Below, piece by piece: positions 17,140-28,538 of a stretch of 42,465 bases of DNA. A program made the translations under genes and the position numbers. The notes below the pieces were generated by a model. That model had not been told where the DNA came from. It did no database searches and saw only the letters and a program-made list of their open reading frames with translations. The stretch covers positions 1 through 42,465 of the forward strand of contig CAZPJY010000016.1 in assembly GCA_964587045.1 (NCBI GenBank), in the 5' to 3' direction. How positions within the stretch are numbered: the first letter of the stretch is position 1; each line of letters opens with the position of its first letter. This stretch comes from an uncultured Methanosarcinales archaeon (GTDB lineage: Archaea; Nanobdellota; Nanobdellia; Woesearchaeales; CAZPJY01).

Positions 17140-18309
17140 CTACCTCCATCTGGGCCGTTCGTTTATCAGCACGACCTTGGTCTCGTTGTCCTTGAACCTG
17201 CCCTTTGCCATCCTGTAATGGCCCCTCGGGAATTTGGATTGGTCCATGATACGATCGAAAGCATCCCGCACAGCTGTCTGTGTCCATTTCTTCCCGTACC
17301 CATAGGCTCCCTCAAGGATCCCGGCGAAATGGTCGAACACGTACTCTCCGACATACTGATCATAAACCAGGCTGTATGAGACCTCAGGATCGCATTCCTT
17401 GCCCATGATGTGCTTGTCGAAACGTTTGCCAATCCTGGGTTCGACGTACATGCTCTGGAAATCGCGGTGCACCATCCTTTTGATGTTGAAACTCTTGTCC
17501 ATCTCAACCAGCACGTTCTGTCCATGAGGCTCGAGGAGTAGCCCTTTCTCTATGAAGTAGCCCATGTTGGTAAGGAGTGGAGTGACTATCTCGTTTACGA
17601 AATAGTCAATCGGTTTTCGTCTGTGCAGCTTTACAAGCTGCTCAAAGAGTGTGGGGTCATCAGGGTTCTTGAAGTCCTTTCCGTAAAGGGAAAACAAGGG
17701 GGCCATTATCCGATTATCTCCAAGCGGAAAAGGCTTTGCTTCCCGAACGAGCATTCCAATATCATCATAGGTCAGGCCGACCGACTCTGGTAGGAATGCG
17801 AAACTCTCCGGCGCGCGACCGTTTGCAACCTCCCGGTGCAGCACATCACTAATCCTTATGCTGTGTTCCACCGAATCCCTGCGCAGCCTCCTGATGAACT
17901 TCGAGAGCCTAATATTGAGATGCAGCTTCAGATAGTATCCTGGAAAATCAGCAGGCATCACAGTCCTGGCTGATGCAGTCGGGAAGGCCTCAATGTACCC
18001 CTCCGGTTTCTTTCCAATTATCTTACTGACCTCATCCTCCATCTGAGGGTGGGCATAGAACCTAGCGAGATATCGGCCTGGAACTCTTTTAATACGCAGG
18101 GCCGAGATTGCCTTGTTTGACGCTATCCCAAAACGAAGCTCCACGTCAGGGTTCTGGGAATCCAAAATGTAGTAAGGCACCTTTATCCGCTCATCACCAA
18201 GAACAGGGTCATATCTACAATCAATCTCGTTGAATCGCTTCTTGAAGGTATTAACCCACCTCTCACAGCAAATCAGGCTTCTTTGGTAGACGAGGTCTTC
18301 TAATTTCAT
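17140..18309 (-). CDS. IucA/IucC (NRPS-independent siderophore synthetase-like) family protein, short form (389 aa)
   Basis: HPQ, PTASARTV, YLKLHL.I..S...R, LLEPHGQNVLV and RDFQ motifs; start placed at MKLEDL because the upstream extension is AT-rich promoter sequence. Confidence 0.8.
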   Translation of the reverse strand: MKLEDLVYQRSLICCERWVNTFKKRFNEIDCRYDPVLGDERIKVPYYILDSQNPDVELRFGIASNKAISALRIKRVPGRYLARFYAHPQMEDEVSKIIGKKPEGYIEAFPTASARTVMPADFPGYYLKLHLNIRLSKFIRRLRRDSVEHSIRISDVLHREVANGRAPESFAFLPESVGLTYDDIGMLVREAKPFPLGDNRIMAPLFSLYGKDFKNPDDPTLFEQLVKLHRRKPIDYFVNEIVTPLLTNMGYFIEKGLLLEPHGQNVLVEMDKSFNIKRMVHRDFQSMYVEPRIGKRFDKHIMGKECDPEVSYSLVYDQYVGEYVFDHFAGILEGAYGYGKKWTQTAVRDAFDRIMDQSKFPRGHYRMAKGRFKDNETKVVLINERPRWR

Positions 18310-18404
18310 GAGTTGGTAAAAGTATACCCAAAATATTATATATTTGATAAAAAAATACAATTTATTCGTAAAATATTTAAATATATTAAGAAAAAGATTA
18401 TATT

Positions 18405-21727: not shown

Positions 21728-22239
21728 CACTTGAATCAAGGCTGAGGGAAAAGGGCTGGTCGGATGAAGAGATAGAACGTACCCTTTCTATCCTCAAGAG
21801 GGCCGAGGTTAACAAGCCCAAGCAGATGATGTTCCTCGACAAGGTGGTCTTCTGGTTCGGGCTCTTCCTCGCGATGCTGGGGAATTTCTTCGTCGCCGTC
21901 GCCTTGATACCTATATTCCTCGCAGTGGGGAGCCCCCAGCTCTACGCAGTGCTCGCAGTGGTCGGGCTGGCCTTCGGCTCCCTTTTCGAGATACTCCTCA
22001 GGGACATCCACCGCTTAAGCGAGCACGACCAGATCATGTCGGGCGTCTTCATGGCAGCCATCGCGATAATATCGATCTACATCATGGTGAGGATTGCAAT
22101 GCACATCGAAGGTGCGCTGGGCCTCGACACCATGCTGCTGCATCCTGTGCCTGTAAGCGCTGTCTACTTAGTATCATTCATGGCTCCATATGTGATATTC
22201 AAGCTGTTAGAACGCAGGGTGAAGAGACATCATCAATGA
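21724..22239 (+). CDS. Hypothetical membrane protein (about 4 TM)
   Basis: N-terminal L.EKGWS.EEI motif, four hydrophobic segments; ATGA overlap with minD. Confidence 0.8.
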   Translation: MTLESRLREKGWSDEEIERTLSILKRAEVNKPKQMMFLDKVVFWFGLFLAMLGNFFVAVALIPIFLAVGSPQLYAVLAVVGLAFGSLFEILLRDIHRLSEHDQIMSGVFMAAIAIISIYIMVRIAMHIEGALGLDTMLLHPVPVSAVYLVSFMAPYVIFKLLERRVKRHHQ

Positions 22240-22255
22240 CTGGATAATCCGATAC

Positions 22256-22657
22256 GTGAAACACAGAGACCTGGTCGCAAGGAAGATTGTTTCGGTAGAG
22301 GAAGAAGAGGGCGGAGTCCTCGTCACCTACAAGGACAAGAAGGTCCTCTTCGTCCCTGCCCTAACTCTTGACGACCCATCAGCCCTCACAGCAGGCAAGG
22401 AAGCCAAGACTATCGTGACCCTTAACAACGAAGGAAACGTAGCGTTTCTCCTCAAGCACTGGAAAGAAGCCTCTTCCCAGCCAAACCTCACCATCATGTT
22501 CATCAACCCCTTCTCCTCCGGCGACACCAAGTGGGTCATATGCCCCCATATCCACAGCAAGATTGCCGACCCTTCATCCCTGAAGCTAGGCCTCGAAAGC
22601 ATGTCGGAGCTGGTTGACCCTATCGATGAGAAGACTTTCCTATCGAAAAATTTTTAA
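22256..22657 (+). CDS. Hypothetical protein
   Basis: Open 133-aa frame with genome-like codon use (F.NP.S..KW.I.P..H..I); GTG start uncertain. Confidence 0.7.
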   Translation: MKHRDLVARKIVSVEEEEGGVLVTYKDKKVLFVPALTLDDPSALTAGKEAKTIVTLNNEGNVAFLLKHWKEASSQPNLTIMFINPFSSGDTKWVICPHIHSKIADPSSLKLGLESMSELVDPIDEKTFLSKNF

Positions 22658-22682
22658 AATTCACATCACCGGGAATCTCAAA

Positions 22683-22791
22683 GGCTGCGGGAGTACAGCA
22701 TATTGCATAACAACGAGTCCAAAAAAACAAAAAGACGCGTCATGCGTCGCTACCACTCGTGCCTTATCAATATGTACAATCCCCGCAGCCA
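22683..22791 (+). ncRNA. Candidate structured RNA (rod-like hairpin) or 5' leader upstream of queH
   Basis: Nested complementary segments GGCTGCGGG/CCCGCAGCC, CATATTG/CAATATG, ATAA/TTAT, ACGAGT/ACTCGT, GACGCG/TGCGTC; TTTTTAAAA box at 22651-22659; T-rich run after the 3' end. Confidence 0.6.
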
Positions 22792-22803
22792 CTTTTCTTC
22801 AAG

Positions 22804-23343
22804 ATGAGACTGCTACTCCACGTCTGCTGCGGACCCTGCTCGACCCAGGTCATCGAGGAGCTGAAGAAGACGCATGACCTGACCTTGTACTTCTACGACC
22901 CCAACATTCAGCCCAGAGAAGAGTACGAACGCAGGCTCGAAGCAGCGATGAAGGTCGCTGAGGTCAAGGGAATCCCCCTGATCATAGGAAGCTATGATGA
23001 GCCGGAATGGAGAGAAGCGGTGAAAGGGCTTGAGGACGAGCCGGAGAATGGGAAGCGTTGCCACGTATGCTACGAGTTCAGGCTCATGGAAGCTGCTAGG
23101 ATGTGCAGAGAGCTACACTGTGATGCATTCACGACGACGCTCACCATCAGCCCGTACAAGGACGCTGCTGTCATTAACAGGATTGGCGAGAAGGCAGCAC
23201 AGGCCTTTGGGGTGGGTTTTCTCGCATCCAACTTCAAAAAGAAGGACGGCTTCCTCAAGAGCACCAAAATGTCCGCGGAGCTGGGAATATACAGGCAGCA
23301 CTACTGCGGGTGCCAAAGCAGCATCGCATCCCCAAAGGAGTAG
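22804..23343 (+). CDS. queH: Epoxyqueuosine reductase QueH
   Basis: LLLHVCCGPC, PNIQP.EEY..R, PE.G.RC..CY..RL, FTTTL..SP.K, YRQ.YCGC; start set at ATG 22804. Confidence 0.95.
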   Translation: MRLLLHVCCGPCSTQVIEELKKTHDLTLYFYDPNIQPREEYERRLEAAMKVAEVKGIPLIIGSYDEPEWREAVKGLEDEPENGKRCHVCYEFRLMEAARMCRELHCDAFTTTLTISPYKDAAVINRIGEKAAQAFGVGFLASNFKKKDGFLKSTKMSAELGIYRQHYCGCQSSIASPKE

Positions 23344-24293
23344 AACCTGTACCCCATCCTCACTGCCTCTGCGTAGGCGCGCATGACATTACCCTTCCCG
23401 GCGAAGGCCGACACCATCAGGAGCAGGCTGCTCTTCGGCAGGTGGAAGTTGGTTATCATAGCGTCGGCCGGCGTCCTGTACCTGTGGCCCGGATAGATGA
23501 ATATCGATGTCTCTGCGCTTTTCGGTCTCAAGCCGCCCTTCCACTCGCAGGACTCGAGAGCCCGCATGGTAGTGGTCCCGCACACGAACAGCCTGCCTTT
23601 CCTGCCGTTGATGGCCTCTGCAGTTTCTGGGCTGACTGAGAACCTCTCCGGGTGCATGCTGTGCTGCGTGTAGTCCTCCTTTCGGATGGGGAGGAAGGTC
23701 GAAAAGCTCACATGAAGGGTTACGTTTGTTATGGTAACACCTTTCCTGGCTATCCTCCGCAGCAGGTTGGGCGTGAAGTGCAGTCCAGCTGTTGGGGCAG
23801 CCAGGCTTCCACTGTCCCTTGCGAACACGGTCTGGTAGCTGCTCTGGTTCCTGAGGCGCTTTGTGACATACCACGGGGTGGGCATCTCCCCGGCGTCCGT
23901 CATGTCCTTTTCATTGCCGAACCTTACGAAGTACCGGTCATCAACCTTGTCCGTGACCTCACACCTGGACCCATTGAACAACAGCTCGTTGCCCGGCTTG
24001 ACCCTGCCTCCCCTGATCCTCGCCTCGTACACATCGCCATCGCGCGCGGTGAGAATCATGTCGACCCTGGCTCCTGTCGACTTCCTGCCCCGGAACCTGG
24101 CCCTGAGGACCTTTGTGCTGTTTAGGACCAGGACGTCACCATTCCTCAGCCTTTCGGCAATCTGGTAGAACCGGCAATGGGCAATCCTCTCCCCTTTCAC
24201 CTCCATGAGCCGGGAAAAGCTTCTCGGCGTCACTGGGGTCTGCGCTATGAGCTCCTTGGGGAGGTCATAATCGTATTGTGATAGCCTATGCAT
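23301..24293 (-). CDS. queA: S-adenosylmethionine:tRNA ribosyltransferase-isomerase
   Basis: YDLP.ELIAQ.P, YQTVFA, GS.AAPTAGLHFT, TLHV, GTT..RALES, TNFHLPKSSLL, YRFYSFGDAM. Confidence 0.97.
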   Translation of the reverse strand: MHRLSQYDYDLPKELIAQTPVTPRSFSRLMEVKGERIAHCRFYQIAERLRNGDVLVLNSTKVLRARFRGRKSTGARVDMILTARDGDVYEARIRGGRVKPGNELLFNGSRCEVTDKVDDRYFVRFGNEKDMTDAGEMPTPWYVTKRLRNQSSYQTVFARDSGSLAAPTAGLHFTPNLLRRIARKGVTITNVTLHVSFSTFLPIRKEDYTQHSMHPERFSVSPETAEAINGRKGRLFVCGTTTMRALESCEWKGGLRPKSAETSIFIYPGHRYRTPADAMITNFHLPKSSLLLMVSAFAGKGNVMRAYAEAVRMGYRFYSFGDAMLLWHPQ

Positions 24294-24367: not shown

Positions 24368-26065
24368 ATGAAACAGCCTAAAGTTGCATATTTCTCCCTC
24401 GAGATAGGGGTCGAATCCGACATTCCCACCTATTCAGGAGGCTTAGGCGTGCTTGCTGGTGACACTCTCAAGTCCGCTGCCGACATGGGCCTGCCGGTAG
24501 TGGGCATCTCACTCCTATATAATAGGGGGTACATGCGGCAGTACATCAAGGATGCAACGCAGTACGAGGCGTACGACGCCTGGATACCCAAGACAACCGG
24601 GCTGCACCAAAAGGATGTCAGCGTCGAGTTCTTGGTGCAGGGCAGGAAGGTCAAGGCCATGGTCTGGCAGTACAACATCGTTGGAAGGAAGGGACACATC
24701 GTGCCGGTCTACTTCCTTGACACCAACATCCACGGGAATCCGAGGCCTGACGGAAGGATAACCTGGGCTCTCTATGGTGGCGACTCAGACTATGACAGGA
24801 TTGTCCAGGAGCTGCTCCTAGGTGTCGGAGGCCTCAGGGTGCTGCGAAGGCTGGGCTACGATAAGATAACCACATACCACATGAACGAGGGGCACGCAGC
24901 TTTCCTGGCGTTAGAACGCATGAAGGAGGAGGGAGGAAACCTCGAGAAGGTCATCGAGGGGAATGCCTTCACGACCCACACCCCTGTACCCGCAGGCCAC
25001 GATCAGTTCGACTACAACGATGTGAGGAACGCCCTGGCTCCGGAGCTGTGGGACCAGCTGATGAGCATCAAAGGGCAAAAGGACATAGGTTGGGACAAGC
25101 TCAACATGACAAAATTGGCCCTGGAGACTTCCCGAACCACGAACGCGGTCGCCAAGAAGCATGCTGTGGTCAGCCGGGCCATGTTCCCAGGCCACGAGAT
25201 CCTCGCGATTACAAACGGGGTGCATCCTTTCACCTGGACATCCCCCCAGTTCACCAGGCTGTACGACGATTACTGGCAGGGAAAGGGCAAGACCTGGCGC
25301 GATGACATGAGTCTGCTTAAGGAAACCAAGCTCTTGATAGCCGACGTCCGGCGGGCCCACCACTCTGCCAAAGAGACTCTTCTGGACTATCTCAACACTA
25401 GGTACAGCATCAATGGTCTCGACAAGGACATCTTCACCATCGGGTTCGCCAGGCGTTTTGCGACATACAAGCGCGCCAACCTTATACTCTACAATCTCAA
25501 GAAGCTGAAAGAGATAGCCGGGGAGAACCGCCCCCTCCAGATCCTGTTCGCAGGCAAGGCCCACCCCCGGGACGGTGGCGGAAAGGACATTATAAGGGAG
25601 ATCCTGACCAAGGGAGACCTTCTCAGGGGGAGCAATGTGAGGGTGGAGTTCATCGAGAACCACAACATGGAGGTAGGGGCGCTGCTGACTTCCGGAGTCG
25701 ACCTCTGGCTTAACAATCCCCAGCGGCCTAAGGAGGCCTCGGGGACAAGCGGTATGAAAGCCGCCCTCAACGGAGTCCCGAACCTCTCGGTGCTCGACGG
25801 CTGGTGGTGGGAAGCGTGGGAGGAAGATGACAGCGTCGGCTGGGCCATAGGGCCGAAACCCGCTGCCGAAGACACCTCGGACGGCGACTTCCGCCAGGAC
25901 AACCACGCGCTATACAATGTGCTAAACGACCTGATAGTCCCGATGTGGTATGATGACAACAACTCATTCTTACAGGTTGGCCTCAACGGCATCAACCGCC
26001 TGGCCTCCTACTTCAACACGCACCGCATGGACAAGGAATACTGGGAGAAGGTCTGGAAGAGGTAA
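24368..26065 (+). CDS. glgP: Alpha-glucan (glycogen/maltodextrin) phosphorylase, copy 1
   Basis: [48 protein letters not shown] motif [14 protein letters not shown]. Confidence 0.95.
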   Translation: MKQPKVAYFSLEIGVESDIPTYSGGLGVLAGDTLKSAADMGLPVVGISLLYNRGYMRQYIKDATQYEAYDAWIPKTTGLHQKDVSVEFLVQGRKVKAMVWQYNIVGRKGHIVPVYFLDTNIHGNPRPDGRITWALYGGDSDYDRIVQELLLGVGGLRVLRRLGYDKITTYHMNEGHAAFLALERMKEEGGNLEKVIEGNAFTTHTPVPAGHDQFDYNDVRNALAPELWDQLMSIKGQKDIGWDKLNMTKLALETSRTTNAVAKKHAVVSRAMFPGHEILAITNGVHPFTWTSPQFTRLYDDYWQGKGKTWRDDMSLLKETKLLIADVRRAHHSAKETLLDYLNTRYSINGLDKDIFTIGFARRFATYKRANLILYNLKKLKEIAGENRPLQILFAGKAHPRDGGGKDIIREILTKGDLLRGSNVRVEFIENHNMEVGALLTSGVDLWLNNPQRPKEASGTSGMKAALNGVPNLSVLDGWWWEAWEEDDSVGWAIGPKPAAEDTSDGDFRQDNHALYNVLNDLIVPMWYDDNNSFLQVGLNGINRLASYFNTHRMDKEYWEKVWKR

Positions 26066-26097
26066 GAATTTTATACTAGTAGGCTCCCTGCCTTGAT

Positions 26098-26859
26098 ATG
26101 TTCACAAACGCTATAAACCCGGTGATAGTCCAGCTGGGACCAGTCCAGATAAAATGGTACGGCCTGGTATATGTCATCGGTTTCGCTCTCGCTTATTACC
26201 TCCTTTGGCGCGCGGCCAAGGAGAAGCGGGTCAAGAACCTGACGACCAAAAACCTTGATGAGCTGCTCCTCTACCTGATAATAGGTGTAGTGGTCGGCTC
26301 CAGGCTCCTTCTCTTCCTGGTCGGCCATCCGATGCAGTTCCTGGAGGATCCTTTAGAAGTATTCAGGATATGGCACGGCGGGATGTCCTTCCATGGGGGG
26401 CTGGTCGGCATAGTCTTCTTCGGGTGGCTATTCTGCCGCAAGTACAAGGTGAGGTTCTACGCCCTGGCAGACCTCCTCGCAGCGCCTGCTGCCTTCATGC
26501 TGTTCGTTGGAAGGATTGCCAACTTCATAAACGGAGAACTGGTTGGGACTGTGACCAACGTCCCATGGTGCGTGCAGTACGGGCATGTGCAGGGGTGCAG
26601 GCATCCCTCCCAGCTCTATGAAGCCGGCAAGAACCTGGTGATATTCTTCTCCCTGCTGGGCTTTCAGAGATTGAAGGGACTCAAGGAGGGAACGATCTTC
26701 TGGTCATTCGTGCTCATGTACGGGACTTTGAGGTTCTTCGTCACCTTCTTCCGCGACGATCCCCGCCTAATCCTGGGATTGTCTGGAGGACAGGTTCTGA
26801 GCCTAGCGATGGCTCTCATAGCAGGGTATGTCCTATTCACCAATTACAGGAGGAAATGA
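26098..26859 (+). CDS. lgt: Prolipoprotein diacylglyceryl transferase (bacterial type)
   Basis: [32 protein letters not shown] and YG..RF....R motifs; multi-TM. Confidence 0.95.
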
Positions 26860-28538
26860 TCATGGAAAGATTCCACAAACCAAGAGACGAGCGGATTGTC
26901 GCCTACTTCTCCATGGAGATCGGCGTCGACGAGCGCATACCGACCTATTCTGGGGGGTTGGGCGTCCTGGCGGGGGACACGATAAAGTCGGCCGCTGACC
27001 TCAACGTTCCCATGGTAGCTGTGACTCTACTGAACGAGAAGGGCTACTTCTACCAAAAGCTCGACGATGACGGCACGCAAGCCGAGAAGCCTGTCGAATG
27101 GAGCGTGGACGACTTCCTGAACCTGCTGGAGCCCACGGTCGAGCTGCAGATTGAGGGCCGCAAGGTGCAGCTCAGGGTTTGGGAGCTCAGGATCAAGGGC
27201 ATCAAGGGGTATGAGGTGCCCATATACTACCTCGATTCAAATGTGGAGAGCAATTCGGAGTACGATCGCACCCTTACCAATCATCTCTACGGCGGAGATT
27301 CCAGGTACCGGCTGCATCAGGAGATGGTGTTAGGCATAGGGGGTGTAAGGATGCTGGCGAAGCTCGGCCATGATATCCATAAGTTTCATATGAATGAAGG
27401 CCATTCGGCCCTGCTGTCCCTCGAGTTGTTCAGCAAGTTCAAGGATTTGGGGGAGGTTAGGAAGAGGTGTGTGTTCACTACGCACACCCCTGTTCCCGCA
27501 GGGCATGACCAGTTCGAAAAGAATCTGGTGGAGAAGAGCTTGGGAACTTTCTTTACAGATGATATGAGGAAGTTCGCCTACCATGAGGGAAAGCTGAACA
27601 TGACCTGCTTAGCGCTCAGCACGAGCATGTACGTCAACGGGGTCGCAAAAAAGCACGGCGAGGTATCGAGGAGCATGTTCCCAGGCTACCCCATAGACTC
27701 CATCACCAACGGCGTCTACTCAAGGGATTGGACCTCTCCCCACTTCAAGCGCCTTTTCAACGAGTACGTGCCCGGATGGGTGCAGGATCCGTTCACCTTG
27801 CGCTACGCCCTGGCCATACCGGACACCAAGATATGGGAGGCGCATATGCAGGCCAAGAAGCAGCTCATTGACTTCGTCAATTCGAGGACCAACTCAGGGA
27901 TGGACTACGACCACTTCACCATCGGCTTCGCGAGGCGGGCGACAGGCTACAAGAGGGCTGACCTGCTGTTCTACGATATCGAAAAGCTGAAGAAGATTGC
28001 TGAGAAAAACGGACCCATCCAGGTCATCTTCGGCGGAAAGGCCCACCCAAGCGACGGTTCAGGCAAGGATATCATCAAGAAGATTTTCTCCAGGATGCAC
28101 GAGCTGAAGAACACGAAGATCTCCATAGCATATGTGGAGAACTACAACATCGGCGTCGCCAAGCTGCTGGTCGCAGGCGTGGACCTGTGGCTGAACACTC
28201 CGATGCGCCCACGCGAGGCATCGGGCACGAGCGGCATGAAGGCATGCCACAATGGAGTCCCGAACCTCTCGGTGCTCGACGGCTGGTGGTGCGAGGGCCA
28301 TATCGAGAACGTGACCGGCTGGTCGATAGGTCCCAAGGGTGACAGCTCAGAGAACGATTCAGGTGAGGACGCGCTGGACCTGTACTACAAGCTTGAGCTG
28401 ATACTCCCTTTGTTCTATACCAAGCGGGATGAGTGGATTGATGTGATGAAGCAGTCTATAGCCTTCAACGCGTCCTTCTTTAACACCCACAGGATGGTGC
28501 ACCAGTATGTGCTGAACGCCTACTTCCATCAGTTGTAA
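26856..28538 (+). CDS. glgP: Alpha-glucan phosphorylase, copy 2
   Basis: Same motif set as copy 1, [18 protein letters not shown] overlap with lgt. Confidence 0.95.

Follow-up and report, generated by a model that had tools for sequence, protein, structure and literature searches.

Directly in front of queH, the stretch of archaeal DNA analyzed here (42,465 nucleotides, hereafter the window) carries what we regard as a gene for a small non-coding RNA. On balance, we favor the reading in which this RNA is a divergent orthologue within a family of Woesearchaeota RNAs, is cut by EndA at a motif of the bulge-helix-bulge (BHB) type, is circularized by RtcB, presents a protein-binding hairpin, and, in this genome, additionally forms the leader of queH. 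The sequence-based part of this reading comprises a promoter, a rod-shaped fold, the BHB, a family with covariation, and a conserved locus (Table 1).

Table 1. Features of the candidate small-RNA gene and its neighbors, with positions in the window.
Feature	Position	Strand	Remarks
Conserved hypothetical gene, 133 aa	22256..22657	+	Family RNA usually lies right behind its orthologues
BRE-TATA promoter	22645..22659	+	18.1 bits; overlaps the upstream gene's stop codon
Precursor RNA rod, about 109 nt	22683..22791	+	z -6.19; models R2 and R3 were built without it
Outer (exon) helix, 5' strand	22683..22691	+	Pairs with 22782-22790; A22692.C22781 mismatch beside the BHB
BHB, 5' half: GUAC of the central helix, then bulge AGC	22693..22699	+	Predicted cut 22698/22699
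Predicted excised, circularized RNA, 81 nt	22699..22779	+	79 nt upon a one-pair slip of the helix; 76-91 nt in the family
5' core strand (end of stem P2 into the A-rich single strand)	22715..22733	+	Weak match to the family consensus, 7.4 bits
Apical hairpin, 5 bp and 5-nt loop	22734..22748	+	Resembles the GCGC-UAU-GCGC variant with two bases swapped; lacks the C-U(R)U-G triloop
BHB, 3' half: GUAC of the central helix, then bulge AAU	22774..22780	+	Predicted cut 22779/22780
Short pyrimidine tract	22792..22799	+	Possible weak terminator, judged from the sequence
queH, epoxyqueuosine reductase	22804..23343	+	PF02677, E 4e-65; own promoter not found
queA, convergent with queH	23301..24293	-	PF02547, E 2e-107

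A sequence-only reading of the window had described a rod of nested stems with an A-rich strand opposite GCTACC and a TATA box of its own, and both parts of that description stood up, while the BHB at the base of the rod had been missed. Upon refolding, stems of 9, 2, 8, 4, 6, and 5 bp were nested between 22683 and 22790, with the A-rich unpaired strand opposite GCTACC. The fold of 22651-22806 reached a z of -6.19 on the plus strand, where it was matched by none of 200 shuffles, and a z of -3.64 on the minus strand. Among the 120 best-folding of the 705 non-coding rod candidates in the whole genome, the rod ranked fourth by z. The strongest non-coding fold of the genome (C31:20753-20852; z -7.7) has two hairpins in a closing stem and gave no match to model R3 (see below). 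The rod occurred only once in the 1.6-Mb genome, and thus the dispersed copies that would have marked a MITE were not seen. As had been anticipated, Rfam returned nothing at the gathering score (best local E 0.84); likeness to preQ1 riboswitches, 5S, SRP RNA, or tRNA was likewise absent in the Rfam and tRNA searches, with no cloverleaf detected in the rod and the 5S gene located elsewhere.

We scored promoters with a BRE-TATA matrix trained on 30 of the 41 tRNA genes of the genome. The site in front of the rod scored above all of the 30 tRNA sites (maximum, 17.9 bits), and its score was reached by one of the 306,424 non-coding positions of the genome. The gap between the TATA site and G22683 is 23 nt, which is within the range of the tRNA genes (23-30 nt) and bears out the tRNA-like spacing proposed earlier. 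The rod indeed ends 12 nt before queH, A22791 being followed at that distance by the start codon at 22804, with a tract of only four U residues behind the rod. In the interval that separates the rod from the start of queH, no site scored better than -1.6 as a promoter; in this genome the precursor is thus probably also the leader of queH, which is probably read through from the RNA promoter.

The genome of the window was the sole representative of its family in the set compared. A BLAST-type DNA search of 60 relatives returned short chance words only (best E, 0.007), and a metagenome scan with the upstream protein detected a single locus, which was identical over 401 nt and therefore offered no variation to use. 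As the direct DNA search yielded no relatives, we examined the region behind the orthologues of the upstream hypothetical gene, which was found in 299 of the 401 genomes of the order (the tally includes nine genomes flagged as unpublished). Several of 29 such loci contained rods, and three of them shared a small hairpin with compensatory changes. The pattern derived from these three rods matched 18 of the 401 genomes (4 for the reversed control); 13 of the matches were intergenic rods, and the remaining five, being coding or unstructured, were dropped. Model R1, built from the 13 rods, matched 23 of 150 genomes once each. Among the 16 new loci, nine were within 600 bp behind the same upstream gene and on its strand, four were on other contigs, one was 7.8 kb away on the opposite strand, and two were unplaceable. 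Model R2 was searched against the first 100 of the 107 stretches behind the upstream gene that remained from 150 listed places after the loci already in the analysis or flagged as unpublished had been left out. In these 100 loci, 19 members were found at E<0.01, all 19 on the strand of the gene and 16 within 150 nt of it. Finally, model R3 (48 sequences) was run against 149 genomes of the order and matched 27 at E<0.001, each of these being represented in its training set; weaker matches in G101 and G114 were inspected and not counted. Every carrier had one match per genome.

Beyond the order, R3 matched none of the 131 genomes from other families in a class-wide sample. A strict pattern detected 21 loci among named genomes; seven of them scored 48-70 bits with R3, and their depositor titles read Woesearchaeota or Nanobdellota (four) or uncultured Methanosarcinales (three). 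The other 14 were bacterial and scored at most 16.7 bits with R3. The same pattern found no match in viral contigs, and Rfam gave no match over the element in fifteen member loci. A promoter-like site of at least 6 bits was present in 33 of 46 upstream regions of the family, and in 25 of these it was positioned 15-34 nt before the model start. The promoter and the family together support the earlier suggestion of a stand-alone small RNA; the acceptor-like CCA end that had been ascribed to it was not conserved in the alignment of the relatives. Other strong rods (z -6 to -7) without a match to the family models were also noticed behind the same upstream gene (L035:1930-2105, L052:1925-1997, and L056). 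The processing route proposed below is already known, whereas a stand-alone conserved gene for rods of this architecture is undescribed in Rfam and the literature we searched. The main text of two 2026 preprints on prokaryotic non-coding elements contains no mention of Woesearchaeota, DPANN, or BHB, and their supplements might hold the family as an unnamed cluster.

The members of the family share an RNA structure. In a set of 15 seeds, selected for a distinct lower stem, 82.7% of the cells were paired and 22 of 25 pairs displayed two-sided changes, counts that are to be read with the relatedness of the members in mind and with alignments, being fitted to the model, that lean towards it. None of 500 shuffles was as good, and slid structures fell well below; the covariation that the sequence-only reading had proposed to look for was thus present. 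G-U (107) outnumbered A-C (26) in the paired columns, which argues for an RNA, and one transcribed from this strand. In the core, a stem rich in G is followed by a single strand rich in A and C, a 4-bp hairpin with a U(R)U triloop closed by C-G, and a second A-rich strand. C, U, and G of the triloop were invariant in those 42 of the 47 sequences that were anchorable on such a hairpin (by column count, C in 42/42 and U in 41/42), and 18 of the 42 bear the UAU variant. Inside the core, no covarying pairs were found beyond the hairpin. A typical rod spans about 100 nt. In G129 (L114:230-430), the core resides in a 58-nt intron of the T loop, the removal of which leaves a complete tRNA-Glu(CTC) as judged by ARAGORN. 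This tRNA also bears a 13-nt anticodon intron and was missed by both ARAGORN and Rfam until the T-loop intron was removed. If the tRNA is functional, the core must be cut out as RNA there.

We consider it likely that the window RNA is a divergent orthologue belonging to this family, as judged from model scores and genomic position. R2 and R3 were both built without the window, and each ranked the rod first in it: R2 gave 21.7 bits (E 0.001), whereas R3 gave 24.9 bits (E 0.0017) and 10.2 bits for its next match, the E-values being roughly calibrated and referring to 42 kb. For comparison, 25 control loci were taken from this genome, among them 15 rods, three other BHB-like sites, and three intron-containing tRNAs, and the highest of their scores was 12.9 bits. 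The rod occupies the usual locus of the family, namely behind the hypothetical gene, on the same strand, and with a TATA box of its own. In G133, the hypothetical gene, the RNA, queH, and convergent queA are in the same order as in the window, and the RNA there is a typical member. Moreover, five of the ten relatives with the closest upstream protein were carriers as compared with four of 34 others. On the other hand, R1, which models the core without the BHB, gave no match in the window at E up to 10; core profiles in nhmmer left the window out of 118 and 168 matches; and filtered genome-wide searches with R2 and R3 did not recover it. As the apical hairpin is passed over in the alignments to R2 and R3, the score derives from the stems, the 5' strand, and the BHB. 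The score of the 5' core strand was reached at 175 of 292,084 non-coding positions, most members scoring 12-27 bits. In the window, C and U of the triloop are swapped, the 3' A-rich strand is short, the pair probability in the triloop register is near 0, and eight of 12 hairpin bases are common with the GCGC-UAU-GCGC variant. As a 5-nt loop on a 5-bp stem takes the place of the triloop hairpin, we filed the RNA as a divergent, probable orthologue.

The central helix of the window BHB is formed by 22693-22696 and 22774-22777, and 3-nt bulges are at 22697-22699 and 22778-22780. One flanking helix (h, 6 bp) follows directly and the other (h', 9 bp) follows past a single A.C mismatch, so that the motif is slightly relaxed. 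No mirror-handed BHB was present in the window. EndA cuts after the second bulge base, from which the cuts in Table 1 were predicted. Among the four strict BHB sites in the non-coding DNA of the genome, that of the window is the most stable, and both EndA and RtcB are encoded in the genome. The BHB fold lies 3.2 kcal/mol above the minimum-energy fold, with pair probabilities of 0.01-0.03. The corresponding folds of 19 of 20 members lie 0-3.8 kcal/mol above the minimum (the last one, at 19.4, is spurious), and the single usable tRNA control lies 2.6 kcal/mol above it. A strict BHB was found in 20 of the 47 distinct members and a mirror-handed one in seven (12 and five, respectively, among the 29 members found before any BHB modeling); of the rest, 17 have half a BHB and ten have none, and cleavage is thus not universal in the family. 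That EndA cuts BHB motifs and RtcB circularizes the intron is established, as described in PMC7714728, PMC4731332, and PMC5829648. From the motif and the gene content, processing of the window element by EndA appears fairly likely, and the RNA is probably released as a small circle. As for other introns in this genome, an 80-nt intron with C-box-like words is present in tRNA-Trp (C44:7210-7364), and several tRNA introns at the canonical position look relaxed rather than strict, yet only one EndA frame, of 184 codons, was found.

The position of the rod had also led to the suggestion of a regulatory leader or riboswitch for an archaeal queuosine pathway, of which the regulatory part was not supported and the role as a leader of queH probably survives. 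A preQ1-type riboswitch or attenuator for queH would fit a rod that is so close to queH and probably co-transcribed with it, the que gene that comes directly after the RNA in five other members (L083, L084, L134, L215, and L101), and the queuosine pathway known in Woesearchaeota (PMC8204110). Nevertheless, we regard it as extremely improbable. The rod gave no Rfam match to preQ1 classes I-III, and the ORF caller placed the next gene at the 48 member loci convergent to the RNA in 32, on the same strand in 14, and nowhere in two (31 and 15 after correction of the miscalled orientation of queH in L101). The 35 downstream neighbors that were scanned belong to mutually unrelated families or to none, and the linkage to que genes that had been called for is confined to seven of the 48 loci, counting queH and queA in either orientation. 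QueH is present in eight of the 27 carriers and 25 of the 122 non-carriers (the latter including G120, flagged as unpublished), and in L046 (genome G038) no RNA separates queH from the upstream gene that it follows. Thus, the link between the RNA and the que genes is a shared neighborhood, as far as gene order and gene content tell. The copy in this window could instead be derived from the family, have lost the family function in this lineage, and serve as a spliceable 5' UTR intron by which the amount of queH mRNA is set, as in HVO_1309 of Haloferax, the BHB intron of which provides a precedent (PMC7714728). The loss of the invariant triloop, the shortened 3' strand, the failure of the core profiles to find the window, and a queH with neither a separate promoter nor more than four U residues in front of it all agree with such a copy. 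We consider it unlikely all the same, because nothing is missing from the promoter, the stems, or the near-canonical BHB, whose intron length is that of the family, longer apical loops also occur in the accepted members L115, L202, and L210, and splicing would leave the 9-bp outer helix before the start codon, so that no switch is apparent.

Two further explanations question the family itself or the place of the window in it. A BHB-bearing RNA unrelated to the family might have come to occupy the same intergenic slot by chance; the modest, roughly calibrated scores in 42 kb and the unrelated rods behind the same gene in L035, L052, and L056 leave some room for this. Nonetheless, the strand, the position, the promoter spacing, the GUAC/GUAC helix, the intron length, and the 5' core strand all match the family, as do two thirds of the hairpin bases when set against the GCGC-UAU-GCGC variant, and a chance occupant is quite improbable. 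Alternatively, the family could be a selfish or neutral mobile BHB intron or a MITE-like element, which spreads by EndA splicing and reverse insertion and has no function for the host. That the same core occurs both free-standing and in a tRNA intron, that its distribution is patchy (27 of 149 genomes), and that some members are away from the usual locus would be expected of such an element. We give this explanation little weight, since carriers, including this genome, have a single copy each, the locus is conserved across many families and is accompanied by a promoter and compensatory changes, and viral contigs contain no match.

For the reading we prefer, that of an EndA-processed family member, three steps can be envisaged. 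Transcription would start at about G22683. EndA would then cut both bulges and RtcB would join the ends, so that a stable, roughly 80-nt circle and a small hairpin of the exons result. The weakest step is the last one, in which the circle would act as a decoy or scaffold for a protein by presenting a short, capped hairpin flanked on either side by an A-rich single strand. In this genome, read-through would in addition make the precursor the 5' leader of queH, a role suggested by gene order and not by ligand sensing. Members without a BHB would remain rods with paired ends, which suggests that circularization serves stability. The A-rich strands vary and there are no box elements, which speaks against a base-pairing guide, and a search for antisense targets found six scattered 13-nt matches. 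C and D boxes together were seen in none of 49 members and the SRP helix-8 motif (GNRA loop and conserved symmetric loop) in none of the 49. An ACA is present in the window and some members and missing in L092, L100, L108, L109, and L113 by eye, and no K-turn or K-loop was seen by eye in the upper stem. As the shape of the capped hairpin is conserved and C/D boxes, the SRP motif, and a conserved ACA are lacking, binding of a protein is favored over guide pairing. A role of the circle as a protein decoy is accordingly no more than tentatively put forward. More doubtful is the general version, in which these Woesearchaeota genes have an EndA-excised circle as their sole product, the circle is a decoy in the manner of 6S or CsrB, and the module moves between a stand-alone gene and a tRNA intron.

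Three other roles or origins were considered and rejected. A role as a substitute for SRP RNA was rejected, since a normal SRP RNA is found in 55 of 60 relatives, and carriers of the family are among them. In this genome, neither Rfam models nor an HMM from ten relatives detected an SRP RNA; SRP54 (C2:53736-54035) keeps its RNA-binding M domain, and the SRP RNA is probably unassembled. The UGU loop, which we take to be the site motif of tRNA-guanine transglycosylase, does not mark the family as a substrate, since 18 of 42 members have UAU and the window lacks UGU. A kinship of the rod ends with tRNA-Gly was not supported by comparison with tRNAs. The tRNA-Gly(CCC) of the window, 8 kb from the hypothetical gene, has no intron, and in G042 (L053) an intron-containing tRNA-Gly was found directly behind the hypothetical gene and convergent to it.

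Several known systems resemble the proposed one in part. The intron of an archaeal tRNA-Trp that contains a box C/D guide RNA (PMC12558985) yields a functional, circularized small RNA from a BHB by EndA, and the core in G129 is likewise housed by a tRNA intron. Unlike that guide, the family lacks C and D boxes, and most copies are stand-alone genes with their own promoters and no tRNA. The permuted circular SRP RNA of Thermoproteus (PMC4731332) comes from a non-tRNA gene, and a BHB formed by its leader and trailer circularizes and stabilizes the RNA; the family differs in having no helix-8 motif, no permutation, and about 80 nt, and normal SRP RNAs coexist with it in the carriers G022, G029, G050, and G055. 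The 5' UTR BHB intron of Haloferax volcanii HVO_1309 (PMC7714728) precedes a gene as the rod probably leads the queH transcript, whereas the family is conserved independently of the downstream gene and mostly faces a convergent one. Circular non-coding RNAs without an assigned role in Sulfolobus (PMC3326292) are likewise small archaeal circles; those were observed in RNA data, whereas the family is known from sequence and likened to them by description, and the word 'bulge' is absent from the main text of that paper.

Bacterial 6S and CsrB are RNAs that act as protein decoys. As a rod with an open, A-rich center, the family RNA is 6S-like but much shorter, and the likeness is one of analogy. 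The constitutive decay element bound by Roquin is a short hairpin with a pyrimidine-purine-pyrimidine triloop, the shape of which is recognized by the protein. Its resemblance to the triloop hairpin of the family is again an analogy, with no Rfam match and no known archaeal partner protein. To our knowledge, hardly any non-coding RNAs other than the universal ones have been described in DPANN archaea, the genomes of which are reduced. An RNA that is conserved in single copy and with a promoter in about one fifth of the sampled genomes of this order points to an as yet undescribed function, and, if the proposal is true, the substrates of the tRNA splicing machinery extend to a purpose-built small circle. 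The copy in the T-loop intron of tRNA-Glu is a specific example in favor of exchange between free genes and the introns of tRNAs. If the decoy role is true, the family would be a class of archaeal regulatory RNA that is neither a modification guide nor a part of the ribosome, RNase P, or SRP. At the same time, one candidate for a first preQ1 riboswitch in archaea, attractive yet without support, is removed.

Some observations concern the neighboring genes. The upstream hypothetical protein has no Pfam match, and its nearest Atlas clusters are hypothetical proteins of Woesearchaeota. By these clusters, and by the queuosine pathway reported from that group (PMC8204110), the organism resembles a Woesearchaeote. 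Its structure was modeled confidently and gave weak restriction-endonuclease-like matches (Z up to 5.8). The idea that it is a subunit or partner of EndA gained no support, as no splicing endonuclease was among the 50 fold matches listed (best Z, 5.8). The frame of its gene is open for 11 codons before the first ATG, GTG, or TTG, directly after a stop codon (window 22220-22256), and these codons match the conserved N-terminus of the orthologues, suggestive of an unusual start codon or a frameshift. Elsewhere in the window, a gene of the IucA/IucC family (siderophore synthetase-like; 17140-18360, minus strand) is unexpected for a reduced archaeal genome, and a bacterial-type prolipoprotein diacylglyceryl transferase (Lgt) is encoded between two phosphorylase paralogues (24368-28538, plus strand).
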